NCBI GenBank assembly: GCA_945915475.1
Contig: CAMEFI010000015.1
Span: 3,277-67,276 of the forward strand
Direction of reading: 5' to 3'
Length of the DNA: 64,000 nt
DNA from: an uncultured Clostridium sp.
Lineage (GTDB): Bacteria; Bacillota; Clostridia; Lachnospirales; Lachnospiraceae
The position numbers and the translations under genes are program-made. Positions 1,962 to 61,353 of the stretch are shown in pieces. A model generated the notes under the pieces. The model saw only the letters and a list, made by a program, of their open reading frames with translations. It made no database searches and had not been told where the DNA came from. Position 1 is the stretch's first letter; every line of letters starts with the position of its first letter.

Positions 1962-2167
1962 TAGGCAATTGCGAAACTCTTGAAAATGCATATTGAGTTG
2001 TGAAGATTTGACAAGTATCCTAAGCAGGTGCTTTGAGACCGCCGGTACTTAACGAGTGTGAAACACGAGTTTAGTACCGCTGCGAGGCGAGAGCAGCGCA
2101 AGCGTGCCTGTGAGGATATTGTCAAATTGCACAACGTTTGAAGAAACAGGCGTTTCGCAAACGCCTA
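1962..2167 (-). mobile_element. MITE-like inverted-repeat element, copy 1 of 4 (inverted relative to copies 2-4)
   Basis: 206 bp. Termini are TAGGCAATTGCGAAACTCTTG ... CAGGCGTTTCGCAAACGCCTA. The interior is near identical to copies 2 and 3. It is flanked by direct repeats TTTCCTGGAA (1952-1961) and TTTCCCGGAA (2168-2177). It lies between hisD and hisB. Confidence 0.85.
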
Positions 2168-2196
2168 TTTCCCGGAAACTGGAAAGGAGATACAGC

Positions 2197-18965: not shown

Positions 18966-20210
18966 ATGGAATTAGAAATAATGGGAAGATTAGCCAAAGA
19001 GGCTTCCAGAAAACTTATTACATTGCCAAAGCCGGTCAAAAATGCCTGTCTGGTAACGATTGCTAAAAACCTGGTAGATCACACAGAGCGGATTATCGAG
19101 GCAAATGAGAAAGATATTGCAAATGGCAAAGCGAACAATATGCCGGATTCTTTGTTAGATCGTTTGAAATTAACACCGGAACGAATTGAGGGGATTGCAG
19201 AAGGCGTGCGTCAGGTGGCTGGGTTAGAAGATCCTGTTGGTGAAGTGCTATCCATGAAGGAACGTCCAAATGGTCTGATGATTGGTAAGAAAAGGGTTCC
19301 TCTTGGGGTCATTGGAATTATTTATGAATCACGGCCAAATGTTACTGTGGATGCATTTTCACTATGTTTTAAGACGAGTAATGCAGTGATATTACGGGGC
19401 GGTTCGGATGCCATATATTCAAATATGACACTGGTGTCCATTATTAAAGATTCATTAGAGGAGATGCATGTGACTCCGGATGCTATTTTTCTGTTAGAAG
19501 ATACAAGCCGTGAAACTGCAACGAAATTGATGAGGCTTAATGAATATCTTGATGTTTTGATTCCAAGAGGTGGTGCGGGACTGATTCGGAGTGTTGTGGA
19601 GAATGCTACGGTACCGGTAATTGAAACAGGTACCGGTAACTGCCATGTATATATTGATGCTACGGCAGATGTGGATATGGCTGTAGAGATTGTGAAAAAT
19701 GCGAAATTACAGCGCCTTGGGGTTTGTAATGCCTGCGAGTCCCTTGTAATTCATCGTGACATAGCGTCAACGGTTATGCCAAAGCTTCTTGCCATGCTTA
19801 AAGAAAACAACTGTGAGGTTCGTGGAGACGAAACGATACAGACCTTTGATGTTAGTGTGATTCCGGCAACCGAAGAAGATTATGCAACAGAATATTTGGA
19901 TAAGATTATATCAGCTAAAGTGGTGGATTCCATTGATGAAGCCATTGAGCATATTAACCGGAATTCTACAGGACATTCTGAGTCAATCGTGACAAAGGAT
20001 TATGAAAATGCACAACGTTTTCTGAACGAAATAGACTCGGCAGCAGTCTATGTCAATGCCTCCACCCGGTTTACGGATGGCTTTGAATTCGGTTTTGGTG
20101 CTGAGATTGGAATCAGTACCCAGAAGCTTCATGCAAGAGGACCCATGGGATTAGAAGCATTAACCACTACAAAATATGTTATTTACGGGAATGGACAGGT
20201 GCGACCATAA
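18966..20210 (+). CDS. proA: Gamma-glutamyl phosphate reductase
   Basis: 414 aa, aldehyde-dehydrogenase fold with ProA blocks ([22 protein letters not shown]). Confidence 0.93.
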
Positions 20211-20237
20211 TTGCCTTGTCTCTCCTATAGAGATGAT

Positions 20238-20446
20238 TAGGCAATTGCGAAACGCCTGTTTCTTCTATAAACGTTGTGCAATTTGACAATATCCTCACAG
20301 GCACGCTTGCGCTGCTCTCGCCTCGCAGCGGTACTAAACTCGTGTTTCACACTCGTTAAGTACCGGCGGTCTCAAAGCACCTGCTTAGGATACTTGTCAA
20401 ATCTGCACAACTCAATATACATTTTCAGGCGTTTCGCAAATGCCTA
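20238..20446 (+). mobile_element. MITE-like inverted-repeat element, copy 2 of 4
   Basis: 209 bp. Termini are TAGGCAATTGCGAAACGCCTG ... CAGGCGTTTCGCAAATGCCTA (20 of 21 complementary). A perfect 12-bp direct repeat TATAGAGATGAT flanks it at 20226-20237 and 20447-20458. Confidence 0.9.
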
Positions 20447-20476
20447 TATAGAGATGATTTACGAAAGGAGTCTATC

Positions 20477-21292
20477 ATGCAGACAAAATTTACAGGAAGT
20501 AAGAACTACGTAGCAAGCGAAGAATTAATGGCAGCAGTGGATATTGCCATTGCATTGGAGAAACCATTACTGATCAAGGGTGAGCCGGGAACCGGCAAGA
20601 CCATGTTAGCAGAAGCAATCAGTCAGTCTATGGGCAAGGATTTGTATATCTGGAATATTAAGTCCACTACGAAGGCACAGGATGGACTTTACGTATATGA
20701 TACCATTCAGCGTTTGTATGATTCGCAATTTGGTGAGGATGGTGTAGATGACATCGGACATTATATTAAGCTTGGAAAGCTTGGAGAGGCCTTTAAAGCA
20801 GATAGACAGGTTATCCTGTTGATCGATGAGATTGATAAAGCAGACTTAGAGTTTCCTAATGATTTGTTGTGGGAGCTTGATAAAATGGAATTCTACATCC
20901 ATGAGACAAAAGAAACGATTAAGGCAAAGGAACGGCCCATTGTGATCATTACTTCCAATGCAGAAAAGGAACTTCCGGATGCCTTTCTTAGAAGATGTAT
21001 TTTCCACTATATTACTTTCCCTGAAAGAGAGCAGATGACAGAAATTATCAATGCACATTTTGAGAATTTAGAAGAAAATGTGATTAAAAATGTCTTAGAT
21101 ACCTTTTATTGGATTCGTTCTGTAAAGGATGTCCGGAAAAAACCGAGTACATCAGAACTCATTGATTGGATCCGTGCATTGATGATCAGTGGCATTGATA
21201 CGGAGCATTTGCGAGAGGAACTTCCCTTCTTAGGTGTGTTATTGAAAAAAGATGAGGATTTAGAGGCTGTGAAGAAGGCCAAATTGTATTAG
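20477..21292 (+). CDS. MoxR-like AAA+ ATPase
   Basis: Walker A GEPGTGKT, Walker B LLIDEIDK, MoxR-type length and layout. Confidence 0.85.
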   Translation: MQTKFTGSKNYVASEELMAAVDIAIALEKPLLIKGEPGTGKTMLAEAISQSMGKDLYIWNIKSTTKAQDGLYVYDTIQRLYDSQFGEDGVDDIGHYIKLGKLGEAFKADRQVILLIDEIDKADLEFPNDLLWELDKMEFYIHETKETIKAKERPIVIITSNAEKELPDAFLRRCIFHYITFPEREQMTEIINAHFENLEENVIKNVLDTFYWIRSVKDVRKKPSTSELIDWIRALMISGIDTEHLREELPFLGVLLKKDEDLEAVKKAKLY

Positions 21293-38639: not shown

Positions 38640-38699
38640 AAATGAACTCTCCTTATACAAGTACGAATTTGTTAACTTTCAAAAATCTAGGTATGCTTA

Positions 38700-38908
38700 T
38701 AGGCGTTTGCAAAATGCCTGTTTATTCTATAAACGTTGTGCAATTTGACAATATCCTCACAGGCACGCTTGCGCTGCTCTCGCCTCGCAGCGGTACTAAA
38801 CTCGTGTTTTACACTCGTTAAGTACCGGCGGTCTCAAAGCACCTGCTTAGGATACTTGTCAAATCTGCACAACTCAATATGCATTTTCAAGAGTTTCGCA
38901 ATTGCCTA
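38700..38908 (+). mobile_element. MITE-like inverted-repeat element, copy 3 of 4
   Basis: 209 bp. Termini are TAGGCGTTTGCAAAATGCCTG ... CAAGAGTTTCGCAATTGCCTA. A perfect direct repeat GGTATGCTTA flanks it at 38690-38699 and 38909-38918. If the shared CTA and T are counted, it extends to CTAGGTATGCTTAT. Confidence 0.9.
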
Positions 38909-39451
38909 GGTATGCTTATTGTGAAAGGAGAAAATGATTTCAAAATCTTCTTCCTTATATTTAAAAATAATCAAGAAAAGCAAAGCAAAAAATCCAAATG
39001 TCACATAGCAGTCAGCAATGTTGAAAACAGGAAAATCAATTAGTTTGAAGTATAAAAAATCAATTACATATTGAAAACGAATCCGGTCAATGAAGTTACC
39101 AATAGCACCAGATAAGATTAATATTAAAATAATTCTTAAATCACGGTAACAATTCATGTATAGGCAGCGCATGTAGATAGCAAAACCCAATGCAAGAACA
39201 ATAATCGTACAAATAGAAAATAATATCTGTTGATTCTGGAACATTCCCCATGCTGCACCTGCATTGCGAATATAATGGATTTCAAAAACATCCGGAATCA
39301 CTGGAATAGAATCGTATAAAGTCATATTGTGATCAATCAGATATTTTGCAACCTGATCCAATGCTATAAGTAAAAGAAATGAAAGGATTGCAGACAAAAT
39401 CTTGCCTGCAATCTTTGAGTTATCAGTTGAATTGTTTGTATGAGTATTCAA
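38906..39451 (-). CDS. lspA: Lipoprotein signal peptidase II
   Basis: LspA pattern (NAGAAWGM ... IGNFIDR ... VIDF ... FNIAD). TTG start after AGGAGA. The stop codon (CTA at 38906-38908) lies in the element terminus. Confidence 0.9.
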   Translation of the reverse strand: MNTHTNNSTDNSKIAGKILSAILSFLLLIALDQVAKYLIDHNMTLYDSIPVIPDVFEIHYIRNAGAAWGMFQNQQILFSICTIIVLALGFAIYMRCLYMNCYRDLRIILILILSGAIGNFIDRIRFQYVIDFLYFKLIDFPVFNIADCYVTFGFFALLFLIIFKYKEEDFEIIFSFHNKHT

Positions 39452-58467: not shown

Positions 58468-58497
58468 TTATATGCTCCTTTTATCATTTAAATCGAT

Positions 58498-58707
58498 TAA
58501 GTAATTGCGAAACTCCTGTGTAATCTATAAACGTTGTGCAGTTTTAACATTATCCACGCAGGCACGCTTTCGCTACTCTCGCCTCGCAGCGGTACTAAAC
58601 TCGTGTTTCACACTCGTTAAGTGCCGGCGGTCTCAAAGTACCTGCTTAGGATACATGTCAAATCTGCATAAACTAATATACTTTTTCACGAGTTTCGCAA
58701 TCACCTA
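58498..58707 (+). mobile_element. MITE-like inverted-repeat element, copy 4 of 4 (most diverged)
   Basis: 210 bp. Termini are TAAGTAATTGCGAAACTCCTG ... CACGAGTTTCGCAATCACCTA. The flanking repeats are degraded: TTTAAATCGAT (58487-58497) and TTTCAATCTAT (58708-58718), 9 of 11 identical. It lies between mutS and mutL. Confidence 0.85.
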
Positions 58708-61353
58708 TTTCAATCTATCCTGTAGATCATTCAGATATAACAGTGCTTTCATGGGCGTCATATTAGATAAGTCAAGCGCCTTGATATCCGCCACCACGCT
58801 GGATTCCTCTGCATTGCCAAAGAAGGAAAGCTGTCCGGCAGTATCTTTGCTCTTTCTGCCCTTTCCCTTAGAACCGGTATCTTCTAACACCTTTGGTATA
58901 ATATCCGTTGCAGCAGTTACCGTAATATCGTGCTCGGATAATTCAGCTGCAATCTCCTTTGCACGGGCAAGTACAACCTCCGGAACTCCAGCTAATTTTG
59001 CAACCTGAATACCGTAGCTTTTATCCGCACCGCCTTTGATAATCTTACGAAGAAATACAATATCATCCCCGGATTCCTTTACCGAGATGCAGTAATTGTT
59101 CACGCTGTCTAATTTTCCCTCTAATTCCGTCAGTTCATGGTAATGGGTGGCAAATAATGTCTTTGCCCCTAATAAATCCTTGGAACTTATATATTCCACC
59201 ACCGCCCAGGCAATGGAAAGTCCATCATAGGTGGAGGTTCCCCGTCCGATTTCATCTAATATCAGCAGACTGTTAGATGTGGCATTTCTTAAAATATTTG
59301 CCACTTCGCTCATCTCCACCATAAAGGTACTCTGTCCGGAGGCAAGATCATCGGAAGCTCCCACACGGGTAAAGATTCGATCCACAATACCTATATCTGC
59401 CGAAGCTGCCGGTACAAAAGAGCCAATCTGTGCCATCAGTACGATCAATGCCACCTGGCGCATATAGGTGGATTTGCCCGCCATATTCGGTCCGGTAATG
59501 ATGGATACCCGATTCAAATCATTATCCAACAAGGTGTCGTTGGTGATAAAGGAATCATTATCCAGTACCTTTTCCACCACAGGGTGCCGTCCCTCTTTAA
59601 TCTCAATCCGTCCCTCCGTGTTAATGGATGGTCTGACAAAATGATTCTTCTCTGCCACATAGGCAAGGGATGCCAAAGCGTCCAGATCTGCGATGATTTT
59701 TGCAGCTTTCTGGACACGTTTTACCTCTTTTGCAAGATTATCTCTGACTTCCACAAATAAATCGTATTCTAAGCCAAATAAACGATCCTCCGCACCAAGA
59801 ATCTTGCCTGCAATATCCTCTAATTCATCGGAGGAATAGCGCTCTGAATTGGCGAGGGTCTGTTTTCGGATAAAATGCTCCGGTACAAGCTCCTTATAGG
59901 AGTTGGTCACATCAAAATAATACCCAAAAACCTTGTTGAATTTGATTTTCAGATTCTTGATTCCCGTTGCCTCCCGTTCCTTAGTTTCCAAATCAATGAG
60001 CCAGCTTTTTCCATCGGACTTGGCATTTTTTAAAATATCTACCGTTTCGTTGTAGCCGTCTTTGATGATACCACCCTCTTTTACAAGAATTGGCGGTTCC
60101 TCCACGATGGCTGTTTCAATGGTATCATAAAGGTCTGTAAGCTCGTCCAGCTCCCTTTCGTATTCTGCAAGCAATCCTTTGTCAAATTCCTGTAAAATAG
60201 CTTTTACATGGGGCAGAATGGCAATGGAATTCTTAAAGGCAATCAAATCTCTTGGATTTGCCGTTTTCAGTGTAATTCTCGTCATGAGACGCTCTAAATC
60301 ATAAACAGCATTCAGATATTCCCTTAATTCATCTCTGGTAATCATGGAATTGTTAAGGGCTTCTATGGCATCTAAACGGTTCTCTATCACTTCCCTGCGG
60401 ATGCATGGCTGTTCCACCATGGAACGCAGTGTTCTTGCTCCCATGGCGGTTTTCGTTTTATCAAGCACCCATAGCAGAGAGCCGCGTTTATTCTTATCCC
60501 GCATGGTCTCGCAAAGCTCCAGATTCCGTCTGGAAGCGCTGTCTAACACTACAAAATCCTCCACATGATAGGTGCTGATGTGGTTGATATGCTCCACAGC
60601 ACCCTTTTGTGTATCCTTCAGATAATACAAAAGACAACCTACAGAGCGGACTGCCTGTGGGTAATCCTTTAACCCTAATCCCTCAATATTCATCATATGG
60701 AACTGTTCTTTGATCAAACGCTCATCCATATCGTAGTCGTAATACCAGTCTTCCATAACGGTAATCATGGTATGCTCCTTTTCCCGAAGAGCCGACAGGC
60801 TTACCCCGATGCTTCCCTGTTCCTCTAAGGAAACGGCTCCGTTTACCAAAATCTCCACCGGCGAAAACTTTGATATCTCATCCATTACCTTTGCAAAGGT
60901 TTCCACCTCCGTGGTATAAAAATCTCCTGTGGTAATGTCTACAAAAGAAATGCCAAAGCATTTATCATAGAAAATGCTCATTAGGTAATTGTTCTTTGCT
61001 TCATTGAGACTTCCGGTACTCATATTGGTTCCCGGAGTCACAACTTTTATTACTTCACGTTTCACAAGGCCTTTTGCCTGTTTTGGATCTTCTACCTGTT
61101 CACAGATAGCAACCTTATACCCCTTTTCCACCAGACGGTTCAAATAATTTTCATACGCATGATACGGAATACCACACATAGGAGCACGTTCCTCCATACC
61201 GCAGTCTTTGCCGGTCAAGGTGATTTCCAACTCTTTCGATGCCGTTATGGCATCATCAAAAAACATTTCATAAAAATCGCCTAACCGGTAAAACAGGATA
61301 CAGTCCTTGTACTCTTCTTTAGTTTTACAGTACATTTCCATCATTGGTGTCAT
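58705..61353 (-). CDS. mutS: DNA mismatch repair protein MutS
   Basis: Mismatch-binding N-domain (FYRLGDFYEMFF), Walker A GPNMAGKST and the ILDEIGRGTST block. The stop codon (CTA at 58705-58707) is the element terminus. Confidence 0.95.
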   Translation of the reverse strand: MTPMMEMYCKTKEEYKDCILFYRLGDFYEMFFDDAITASKELEITLTGKDCGMEERAPMCGIPYHAYENYLNRLVEKGYKVAICEQVEDPKQAKGLVKREVIKVVTPGTNMSTGSLNEAKNNYLMSIFYDKCFGISFVDITTGDFYTTEVETFAKVMDEISKFSPVEILVNGAVSLEEQGSIGVSLSALREKEHTMITVMEDWYYDYDMDERLIKEQFHMMNIEGLGLKDYPQAVRSVGCLLYYLKDTQKGAVEHINHISTYHVEDFVVLDSASRRNLELCETMRDKNKRGSLLWVLDKTKTAMGARTLRSMVEQPCIRREVIENRLDAIEALNNSMITRDELREYLNAVYDLERLMTRITLKTANPRDLIAFKNSIAILPHVKAILQEFDKGLLAEYERELDELTDLYDTIETAIVEEPPILVKEGGIIKDGYNETVDILKNAKSDGKSWLIDLETKEREATGIKNLKIKFNKVFGYYFDVTNSYKELVPEHFIRKQTLANSERYSSDELEDIAGKILGAEDRLFGLEYDLFVEVRDNLAKEVKRVQKAAKIIADLDALASLAYVAEKNHFVRPSINTEGRIEIKEGRHPVVEKVLDNDSFITNDTLLDNDLNRVSIITGPNMAGKSTYMRQVALIVLMAQIGSFVPAASADIGIVDRIFTRVGASDDLASGQSTFMVEMSEVANILRNATSNSLLILDEIGRGTSTYDGLSIAWAVVEYISSKDLLGAKTLFATHYHELTELEGKLDSVNNYCISVKESGDDIVFLRKIIKGGADKSYGIQVAKLAGVPEVVLARAKEIAAELSEHDITVTAATDIIPKVLEDTGSKGKGRKSKDTAGQLSFFGNAEESSVVADIKALDLSNMTPMKALLYLNDLQDRLK

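Follow-up and report, generated by a model that had tools for sequence, protein, structure and literature searches.

A short non-coding transposon of Lachnospiraceae with target-site duplications placed upstream of Shine-Dalgarno motifs

Element anatomy and target-site duplications

In the window analyzed here (the whole 64-kb stretch of contig CAMEFI010000015.1 of an uncultured Clostridium sp., with a G+C content of 37.8%), the spacer between proA (18966-20210) and a gene for an AAA+ (MoxR-like) ATPase (20477-21292) contains a 209-bp unit at 20238-20446 on the plus strand with no credible open reading frame (ORF). The termini of the unit, TAGGCAATTGCGAAACGCCTG on the left (20238-20258, plus strand) and CAGGCGTTTCGCAAATGCCTA on the right (20426-20446), form a 21-nt inverted repeat that is complementary at 20 of 21 positions, the right terminus reading TAGGCATTTGCGAAACGCCTG as its reverse complement on the minus strand. 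Between the termini lies a conserved folded core (20282-20405, plus strand), which scores 119 bits against our covariance model R1. The 12-mer TATAGAGATGAT abuts the unit on the left (20226-20237) and again on the right (20447-20458); as had been stated in an earlier note on this DNA, which was made from the letters alone, these are two perfect copies, and they are the only two in the window. The right copy is followed by 5 nt (TTACG, 20459-20463) and then by AAAGGAG (20464-20470, plus strand), the Shine-Dalgarno sequence of the ATPase gene, whose ATG begins at 20477. The direct repeat can also be read as 13 nt, and the boundary of the element is ambiguous by 1 nt because its first T is also the base that follows the right copy. 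The unit is a non-coding transposon, a MITE (miniature inverted-repeat transposable element), with terminal inverted repeats of 21 bp, a member of a family that is widespread in the Lachnospiraceae. The closest public relatives of the proteins encoded in the window are likewise from Lachnospiraceae metagenome-assembled genomes.

A BLAST search of the window with the element returned four copies of 206-210 bp, which are labeled c1 to c4 in order of position, the proA-ATPase copy being c2. All four lie within co-directional gene pairs (hisD-hisB, proA-ATPase, lspA-rluD, and mutS-mutL), and three of the four end 29-30 nt short of the next start codon. The ORFs that touch them are mechanical read-throughs only and reveal no coding capacity. 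Copy c1 (206 bp, 1962-2167, minus strand), between hisD and hisB, is flanked by TTTCCTGGAA (1952-1961) and TTTCCCGGAA (2168-2177), which differ by one mismatch, and the Shine-Dalgarno sequence AAAGGAG of hisB (2183-2189, plus strand; ATG at 2197) begins 5 nt (ACTGG) beyond the duplication. Copy c3 (209 bp, 38700-38908, plus strand), between lspA and rluD, has a perfect repeat, GGTATGCTTA, at 38690-38699 and 38909-38918; the right copy covers the final lspA codons, and 5 nt (TTGTG) beyond it AAAGGAG lies antisense in the 3' end of lspA (38924-38930, plus strand). Copy c4 (210 bp, 58498-58707, plus strand), between mutS and mutL, is a member of an older subfamily and is flanked by TTTAAATCGAT (58487-58497) and TTTCAATCTAT (58708-58718), the latter covering the final mutS codons. 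Here the motif lies on the other side of the element, where AAAGGAG (58475-58481, minus strand), the Shine-Dalgarno sequence of mutL (ATG at 58467-58465), is separated from the duplication by 5 nt (TGATA). The flanks that the earlier note had given for these three copies, perfect for c3 and imperfect for c1 and c4, are as described there. On the minus strand the terminal TAG of the MITE is in frame and serves as the stop codon of lspA (38906-38908, c3) and of mutS (58705-58707, c4). LspA and MutS keep their original C termini (...NKHT* and ...DRLK*) because the duplication covers the last codons and the MITE supplies the stop.

To place these copies in a wider sample, one genome per species was scanned for the terminal repeat, which gave 99 loci, almost exclusively in Lachnospiraceae and other Clostridia. 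The genomes are mostly metagenome-assembled drafts, and many of the matches are found at contig ends, as expected because the repeat breaks short-read assemblies. Inward-facing pairs of termini numbered 35 and were mostly 197-224 bp apart. Each pair was given the score of its highest-scoring direct repeat with anchors at both termini; the control consisted of 1,225 mismatched pairs, in which a left flank and a right flank came from two different elements. The score was 8-12 in 22 of the 35 real pairs and at most 7 in the control. An anchored 12/12 match at both termini, as found for c2, has a chance probability of ~4^-12; on the strength of this figure and of the control maximum, chance is excluded as the source of the flanking repeats. 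A covariance model of the core detected 46 copies in the window and the 99 loci together. Flanking repeats of 9-14 bp were found in 27 of the 37 such copies with recognizable termini and were perfect in 16 of the 27, and the terminal inverted repeats are kept across 25 aligned copies. The duplicated sequence varies from locus to locus among about 40 family members in many genomes, most of which have 9-14 bp, so that the locus-specific duplications noticed earlier in the window hold for the family. The 12-mer flanking c2 is a target-site duplication.

Two other accounts of the duplications were discarded. A constant 12-bp duplication masked by the ambiguity of the boundary was ruled out by several perfect 9-10-bp cases that cannot be extended, and palindromic targets of the kind used by IS1272 were ruled out since the duplications are AT-rich and not consistently palindromic. 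Derivatives that keep both termini and 11-13-bp flanking repeats were also observed, namely short ones of 51-123 bp (L046 1527-1577, L029 5191-5313, L016 2475-2552, and L056 1815-1878) and a long one of 393 bp (L035 2557-2949). The entire folded core is gone from the 51-bp derivative.

The earlier note had ascribed the repeats to staggered-cut transposition. In addition to the 22 pairs that score above every control, this is supported by the 11-14-bp duplications around full-length insertion sequences that have the same termini, by sister-species loci that lack the element, and by a single-copy mutS-mutL junction. At the c2 locus, public contigs with an identical ProA either contain the element or end within it, and a contig with an identical HisD also ends within the element. 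An exact-protein look-up for RluD (from a mechanical TTG start) returned no record, and no second strain of the same species is on record. The next-closest ProA is 89% identical and comes from the sister species JBJEJE (GCA_051877755.1). In JBJEJE and one other sister species the proA-ATPase spacers are 96 and 87 bp long and contain neither the element nor the 12-mer; they are too diverged to be aligned with the c2 locus, where an empty site is predicted to read CTCTCC-TATAGAGATGAT-TTACGAAAGGAG and so to have the 12-mer only once.

More can be learned from the c4 site, where the duplication reaches into the end of mutS. Removal of the element and one repeat predicts a pre-insertion sequence of ...CAGGATAGATTGAAA-TGATAAAAGGAGCATATAA-ATGATTAAGGTT. 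The sister-species mutS-mutL junction reads ...CAGGAACGTTTGAAG-TGATAAAAGGAGCAAATAC-ATGATTAAGGTT; it has a single copy of the target and no element, and after the single copy it continues with exactly the predicted downstream sequence, TGATAAAAGGAGC...ATGATTAAGGTT. The two c4 repeats differ from each other at two positions, and at each of these one of them matches the ortholog, which is what is expected of two duplicates diverging after insertion. Presence and absence of the element with a single target copy is seen between species at c4.

There was no synteny between the fetched loci and the window, and a search of the flanks against the loci gave only one diverged pair (L086/L018). The MITE copies are 95-96% identical to copies of the sister species JBJEJE (L031), with proA DNA only 82% identical, and c4 groups with copies of a third genome (L066/L081, JBJENX) at 90-92%. 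The similarity between copies points to horizontal spread of the element or to recent bursts from master copies that these genomes have in common.

Position relative to the AAAGGAG motif

The order seen at the four window copies, element end, duplication, 5 nt, AAAGGAG, is shared by most of the family. One end of the element lies 26-34 nt upstream of a start codon with a preceding ribosome-binding site in 24 of 31 elements. AAAGGAG with no more than one mismatch was found at an offset of 14-20 nt in 34 of 41 elements, including full-length insertion sequences (described below), compared with 3.6% for random positions. Among the 32 elements that have both the motif and a scored duplication, the gap between the two is exactly 5 nt in 26, and the duplication lengths had been called earlier, blind to the motif. 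The base directly before the motif is G in 21 and A in 11 of 34 cases, giving the consensus (G/A)AAAGGAG.

A broader survey, conditioned on the terminal repeat alone, covered 129 element ends. The motif was present at an offset of 14-21 nt in 52 of these, with a peak at 16, 17, and 18, compared with 1.2% of random flanks. An element is expected to face the motif with one end only, so that 40% of ends translates into ~80% of elements. The offset minus 6 gives the duplication length and provides an independent distribution of it: 8 bp at 1 end, 9 bp at 3, 10 bp at 15, 11 and 12 bp at 12 each, 13 bp at 7, and 14 bp at 2. Since the gap from duplication to motif is exactly 5 nt, differences in duplication length come from the far cut. 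Motif and spacing are the same in the full-length insertion sequences as in the MITEs. The end that faces the motif is the left one in 15 MITEs and the right one in 10; in the insertion sequences it is the end upstream of the transposase gene at 8 sites and the other end at 1.

Ribosome-binding sites in this phylum usually read AAAGGAG, and copies therefore land in intergenic DNA ~30 nt before a start codon, with the coding sequence and the ribosome-binding site intact. Such a position might instead be explained if the MITE inserted at random and selection, not target choice by a transposase, retained the copies found ~30 nt from start codons. In favor of this view, an insertion at another place would often do harm, all four window copies lie in conserved gene pairs that they leave undamaged, and the spacers of divergent genes hold 10 copies compared with 2 for convergent genes. 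However, selection would not fix the distance from duplication to motif at 5 nt in 26 of 32 elements, nor would it yield an offset peak only 3 nt wide, and long intergenic spacers offer many other harmless sites. Furthermore, the motif beside c3 (38924-38930) is no working ribosome-binding site, being antisense within the last lspA codons, yet its spacing is unchanged. The same spacing at a non-functional motif favors recognition of the DNA sequence over selection for function, and we regard selection after random insertion as an improbable account.

Probable partner insertion sequences and proposed transposition

At five loci an ORF of the type carried by insertion sequences lies beside the terminal repeat. 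One of them, L015, is an intact element of 1,815 bp with a 487-aa ORF, a perfect 12-bp duplication, and the termini TAGTTAATTGTTAAAC... and TAGGTAATTGCGAAACTCTTG; L093 is a frameshifted copy that also has a perfect 12-bp duplication. A search with the L015-type protein retrieved 3,639 relatives, one of which is named "ISNCY family transposase" by NCBI. L109, which encodes another of these relatives, protein P0177, is 1,757 bp long, has a perfect 11-bp duplication, and lies within a 297-kb genome contig. The first 19 nt of L109 are identical to the end of c1 (19/19); at its opposite end, the terminal 15 nt are identical to the end of c4 (15/15). L015, L093, L117, L118, and L126 likewise share the MITE termini.

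Roseburia sp. 831b and Butyrivibrio proteoclasticus B316 have homologues with the same termini on complete plasmids. The B316 plasmid pCY360 has two copies side by side, with 11-bp and 14-bp duplications. These two full-length copies (L124/L118, NC_014389.1, ~63.7-67.2 kb) are arranged head to tail with only the 14-bp CATTTATTTATAAA between them, and at the first copy 11 bp of this site are duplicated. L127, a Logan metagenome contig whose two ends overlap, contains a junction of right terminal repeat (IRR), 12 bp, and left terminal repeat (IRL). The pCY360 tandem and the L127 junction could each be due to insertion in tandem at a hot spot or else to a circular intermediate. A BLAST search with the MITE gave no match among plasmids and one weak partial match among phages, and a scan of IMG/VR for the terminal repeat gave 0 matches.

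The full-length insertion sequences are 1.75-1.8 kb long (1,757-1,815 bp) and have a single ORF, terminal inverted repeats, and 11-14-bp duplications. A DDE transposase family with long duplications, as the earlier note had supposed, is right in kind. The transposase is 482-487 aa in length and consists of an N-terminal DUF772 followed by an IS4/IS5-type DDE domain with a YREK motif. In Pfam it matches DUF772 and DDE_Tnp_1, the latter weakly in some members and above threshold in one. The residues D147, D288/D292, and E424 are invariant in 12 homologues, as is the signature Y417-x2-R420-x3-E424-x6-K431. No relative with a solved structure was found for the transposase. Residues ~330-390 of P0177 (alignment A4), between the second catalytic D and the E, form an invariant cysteine-rich segment, CCP...C...C...C...C. 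As judged from the alignment, this segment resembles an inserted metal-binding domain and might recognize the target or the element ends. DUF772 and the cysteine-rich segment are the candidate domains for reading the motif.

An IS4-family transposase, IS231-like or IS4-like, was also considered as the source of mobility. The 10-13-bp duplications first suggested IS4, whose family range is 4-13 bp (PMC7335449), and the transposase that was found does have an IS4/IS5-type DDE domain with YREK. Nevertheless, every full-length element with the MITE termini encodes a DUF772-containing protein, the best NCBIfam matches are to IS1182 and IS5 models with no IS4 model among them, and no IS4-type element with TAGGC(A/G)(A/T)TTGCGAAAC termini was seen, all of which makes this alternative very unlikely. 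The partner is probably a member of an IS1182-like (ISNCY) group, not of IS4, as judged by these domain matches.

Because termini, duplication-length range, and target motif are common to the MITE and the insertion sequences, we infer that the DDE transposase of the 1.75-1.8-kb insertion sequences mobilizes the MITE in trans. The transposition complex would read the DNA motif (G/A)AAAGGAG and join one transposon end at a fixed position 5 bp upstream of it. The other end would be joined on the opposite strand, at a variable position 9-14 bp further upstream, and repair of the gaps would leave a duplication of variable length. We consider it very probable that c2 is a MITE moved in trans by such a DDE transposase, with insertion anchored on the motif and the 12-mer as the resulting duplication. 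That the DDE lineage (DUF772 plus DDE, IS1182-like/ISNCY) and the MITE use the Shine-Dalgarno motif in the DNA as a homing signal, with the far cut floating over 9-14 bp, and that the MITE fold aids transposition or acts as an RNA, is a wider proposal for which we judge the case to be evenly balanced.

Several observations weigh against trans mobilization with motif-anchored insertion. Recognition of the target by the transposase is deduced from the pattern of insertions, and ~20% of elements have no recognizable motif or duplication. The 64-kb window contains no transposase gene. The MITE and the insertion sequences share only ~19-21 terminal bases, so that the MITE is no simple deletion derivative, and the MITE core model has no match inside the insertion sequences. 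The family assignment of the partner is loose, its best NCBIfam match, IS1182 (NF033551), scoring 52.7 bits against a curated cut-off of 270. A same-species empty site for c2 was not found, and two metagenome scans, one for the predicted c2 empty site and one for the core of the c2 subfamily, were negative. Finally, the full-length element L117 on the Roseburia sp. 831b plasmid (NZ_CP135163.1) has no flanking duplication. L117 has AAAGGAG at the usual distance on one side, and there is a second match in the same record; recombination between copies may account for the missing duplication.

With regard to the rest of the window, a scan for tRNA and tmRNA genes found none. Long ORFs are nearly all on the plus strand up to ~34 kb and nearly all on the minus strand from ~37.7 kb. 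The switch might correspond to a replication terminus, or to an inversion when compared with the sister genome, in which proA and mutL are on the same strand of one contig.

The folded core and relation to known elements

As a single strand the whole element is predicted to form a long hairpin (-92 and -104 kcal/mol for the two strands, z ~ -13). The conserved core of ~125 nt occupies 20282-20405 in c2, 2003-2126 (minus strand) in c1, 38744-38867 in c3, and 58543-58666 in c4. Outside the termini the arms vary freely in sequence between subfamilies and retain their pairing. The center is asymmetric and is conserved like the termini (...GCAGCGGTAC-TAA-[variable stem-loop]-TAAG-TACCGGCGG...CAAAG...), and the core includes invariant unpaired bases. 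In the alignment of the 46 copies, which was fitted to the model structure and whose counts therefore lean towards that structure, 93% of cells are paired and 25 of 31 pairs show two-sided changes. The covariation score is 0.43, compared with 0.16 in shuffled alignments (0 of 500 reach 0.43) and no more than 0.08 with slid partners, and independent MAFFT alignments contain the same compensatory changes.

The evidence on the strand of a possible RNA is mixed. Counts of G-U versus A-C pairs favor the aligned strand in the inner helices (27 versus 11) and the opposite strand in the outer ones (13 versus 22), and the reverse strand folds ~12 kcal/mol better in 24 of 25 copies. A scan for promoters and terminators gave one weak outward promoter-like site (20394-20423), which we do not rely on, as its -10 part, judged by eye in the alignment, is not conserved in the family. 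Searches of Rfam gave no match at gathering scores for the whole window and none at E ≤ 10 for the element.

The stability of the hairpin and the compensatory changes in its core would also suit a host-encoded structured RNA or regulatory palindrome with flanking repeats that are incidental or part of a conserved site, but this is scarcely credible given that the repeats are locus-specific and abut the termini exactly, that orthologous loci lack the unit, that the termini are those of a transposase-bearing insertion sequence, and that the copies show no orientation bias relative to neighboring genes (8 sense, 9 antisense) and no Rfam match. A structural role and mobility are compatible, and the RNA explanation fails only as a substitute for mobility. 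The fold may serve the element, for example as a foldback or cruciform by which the ends meet although the DNA is too short for looping; alternatively, it may function as an RNA.

The footprint of c2 is in itself ordinary, as MITEs with target-site duplications are well known. What the present analysis adds is a probable partner family, a rule of ribosome-binding-site targeting that would explain the variation in duplication length, and the conserved fold. Like the classical MITEs (Correia/NEMIS, ERIC, RUP, and MITEAba12), the element is short and non-coding and has terminal inverted repeats, target-site duplications, and many intergenic copies; long hairpins co-transcribed with neighboring genes are a further likeness. 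Unlike in those elements, the duplication is long, varies in length, and is anchored at one boundary, the target is a specific motif of 7-8 bp that coincides with the ribosome-binding site, and the core is conserved, asymmetric, covarying, and absent from the parent insertion sequences. No description of a MITE of this kind was found in the literature searched, and neither a 2024 review nor a 2024 large survey of prokaryotic MITEs mentions MITEs of Lachnospiraceae or Clostridia or of IS1182 or ISNCY.

IS1182-family elements are usually ~1.3-2 kb long, and the partner insertion sequences fall inside this range. They resemble IS1182 (e.g. IS1272) and ISNCY elements in having DUF772 followed by a DDE domain, terminal inverted repeats, and a single ORF, and IS1182 is their best NCBIfam match even though the score is far below the cut-off. 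Variable duplication length is another shared feature, the range for IS1182 being 2-60 bp according to ISfinder as cited in PMC7335449. IS1272 itself replaces palindromic targets and leaves no duplication (PMC5678879), whereas the elements described here make 9-14-bp duplications beside a sequence motif and their targets are not consistently palindromic.

Families of the IS4 type have non-autonomous derivatives bounded by their own inverted repeats. IS4 and IS231, with the mobile insertion cassettes derived from IS231, share long duplications and a DDE domain with YREK with the partner elements but differ in that DUF772 and the NCBIfam matches of the partner point to IS1182/IS5.

IS900 and IS901 use a DEDD transposase, are not known to have terminal inverted repeats or to duplicate the target, and have their insertion site between Shine-Dalgarno sequence and start codon. 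The elements described here have a DDE transposase, inverted repeats, and 9-14-bp duplications, and they insert upstream of the motif by 5 bp plus the duplication, so that ribosome-binding site and start codon stay intact. Insertion tied to the Shine-Dalgarno region of host genes is the common feature, IS900 and IS901 (IS110 family) being reported to insert at translation initiation signals in PMC2942039, which cites Doran 1997 and Inglis 2003. Ribosome-binding-site targeting by a DDE element with inverted repeats and duplications was not found in the literature searched, where the sole precedent is the IS110 family, which is mechanistically unrelated and works by different chemistry.

A widespread mobile-element family of gut and rumen Lachnospiraceae, whose repeats break short-read assemblies of the host genomes, thereby gains a probable transposase partner. 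If confirmed, the targeting would be a rare case of strict target choice among DDE transposases and would account for the varying length of the duplications; tools for site-directed insertion might also be developed from it. If homing is true, it would provide the elements with an inherent safe landing site, just upstream of ribosome-binding sites. With each insertion, a hairpin of 200 nt comes to lie directly upstream of a ribosome-binding site, frequently within operons (his, mutS-mutL, and lspA-rluD), and the element could therefore alter the expression of many genes in abundant gut bacteria.

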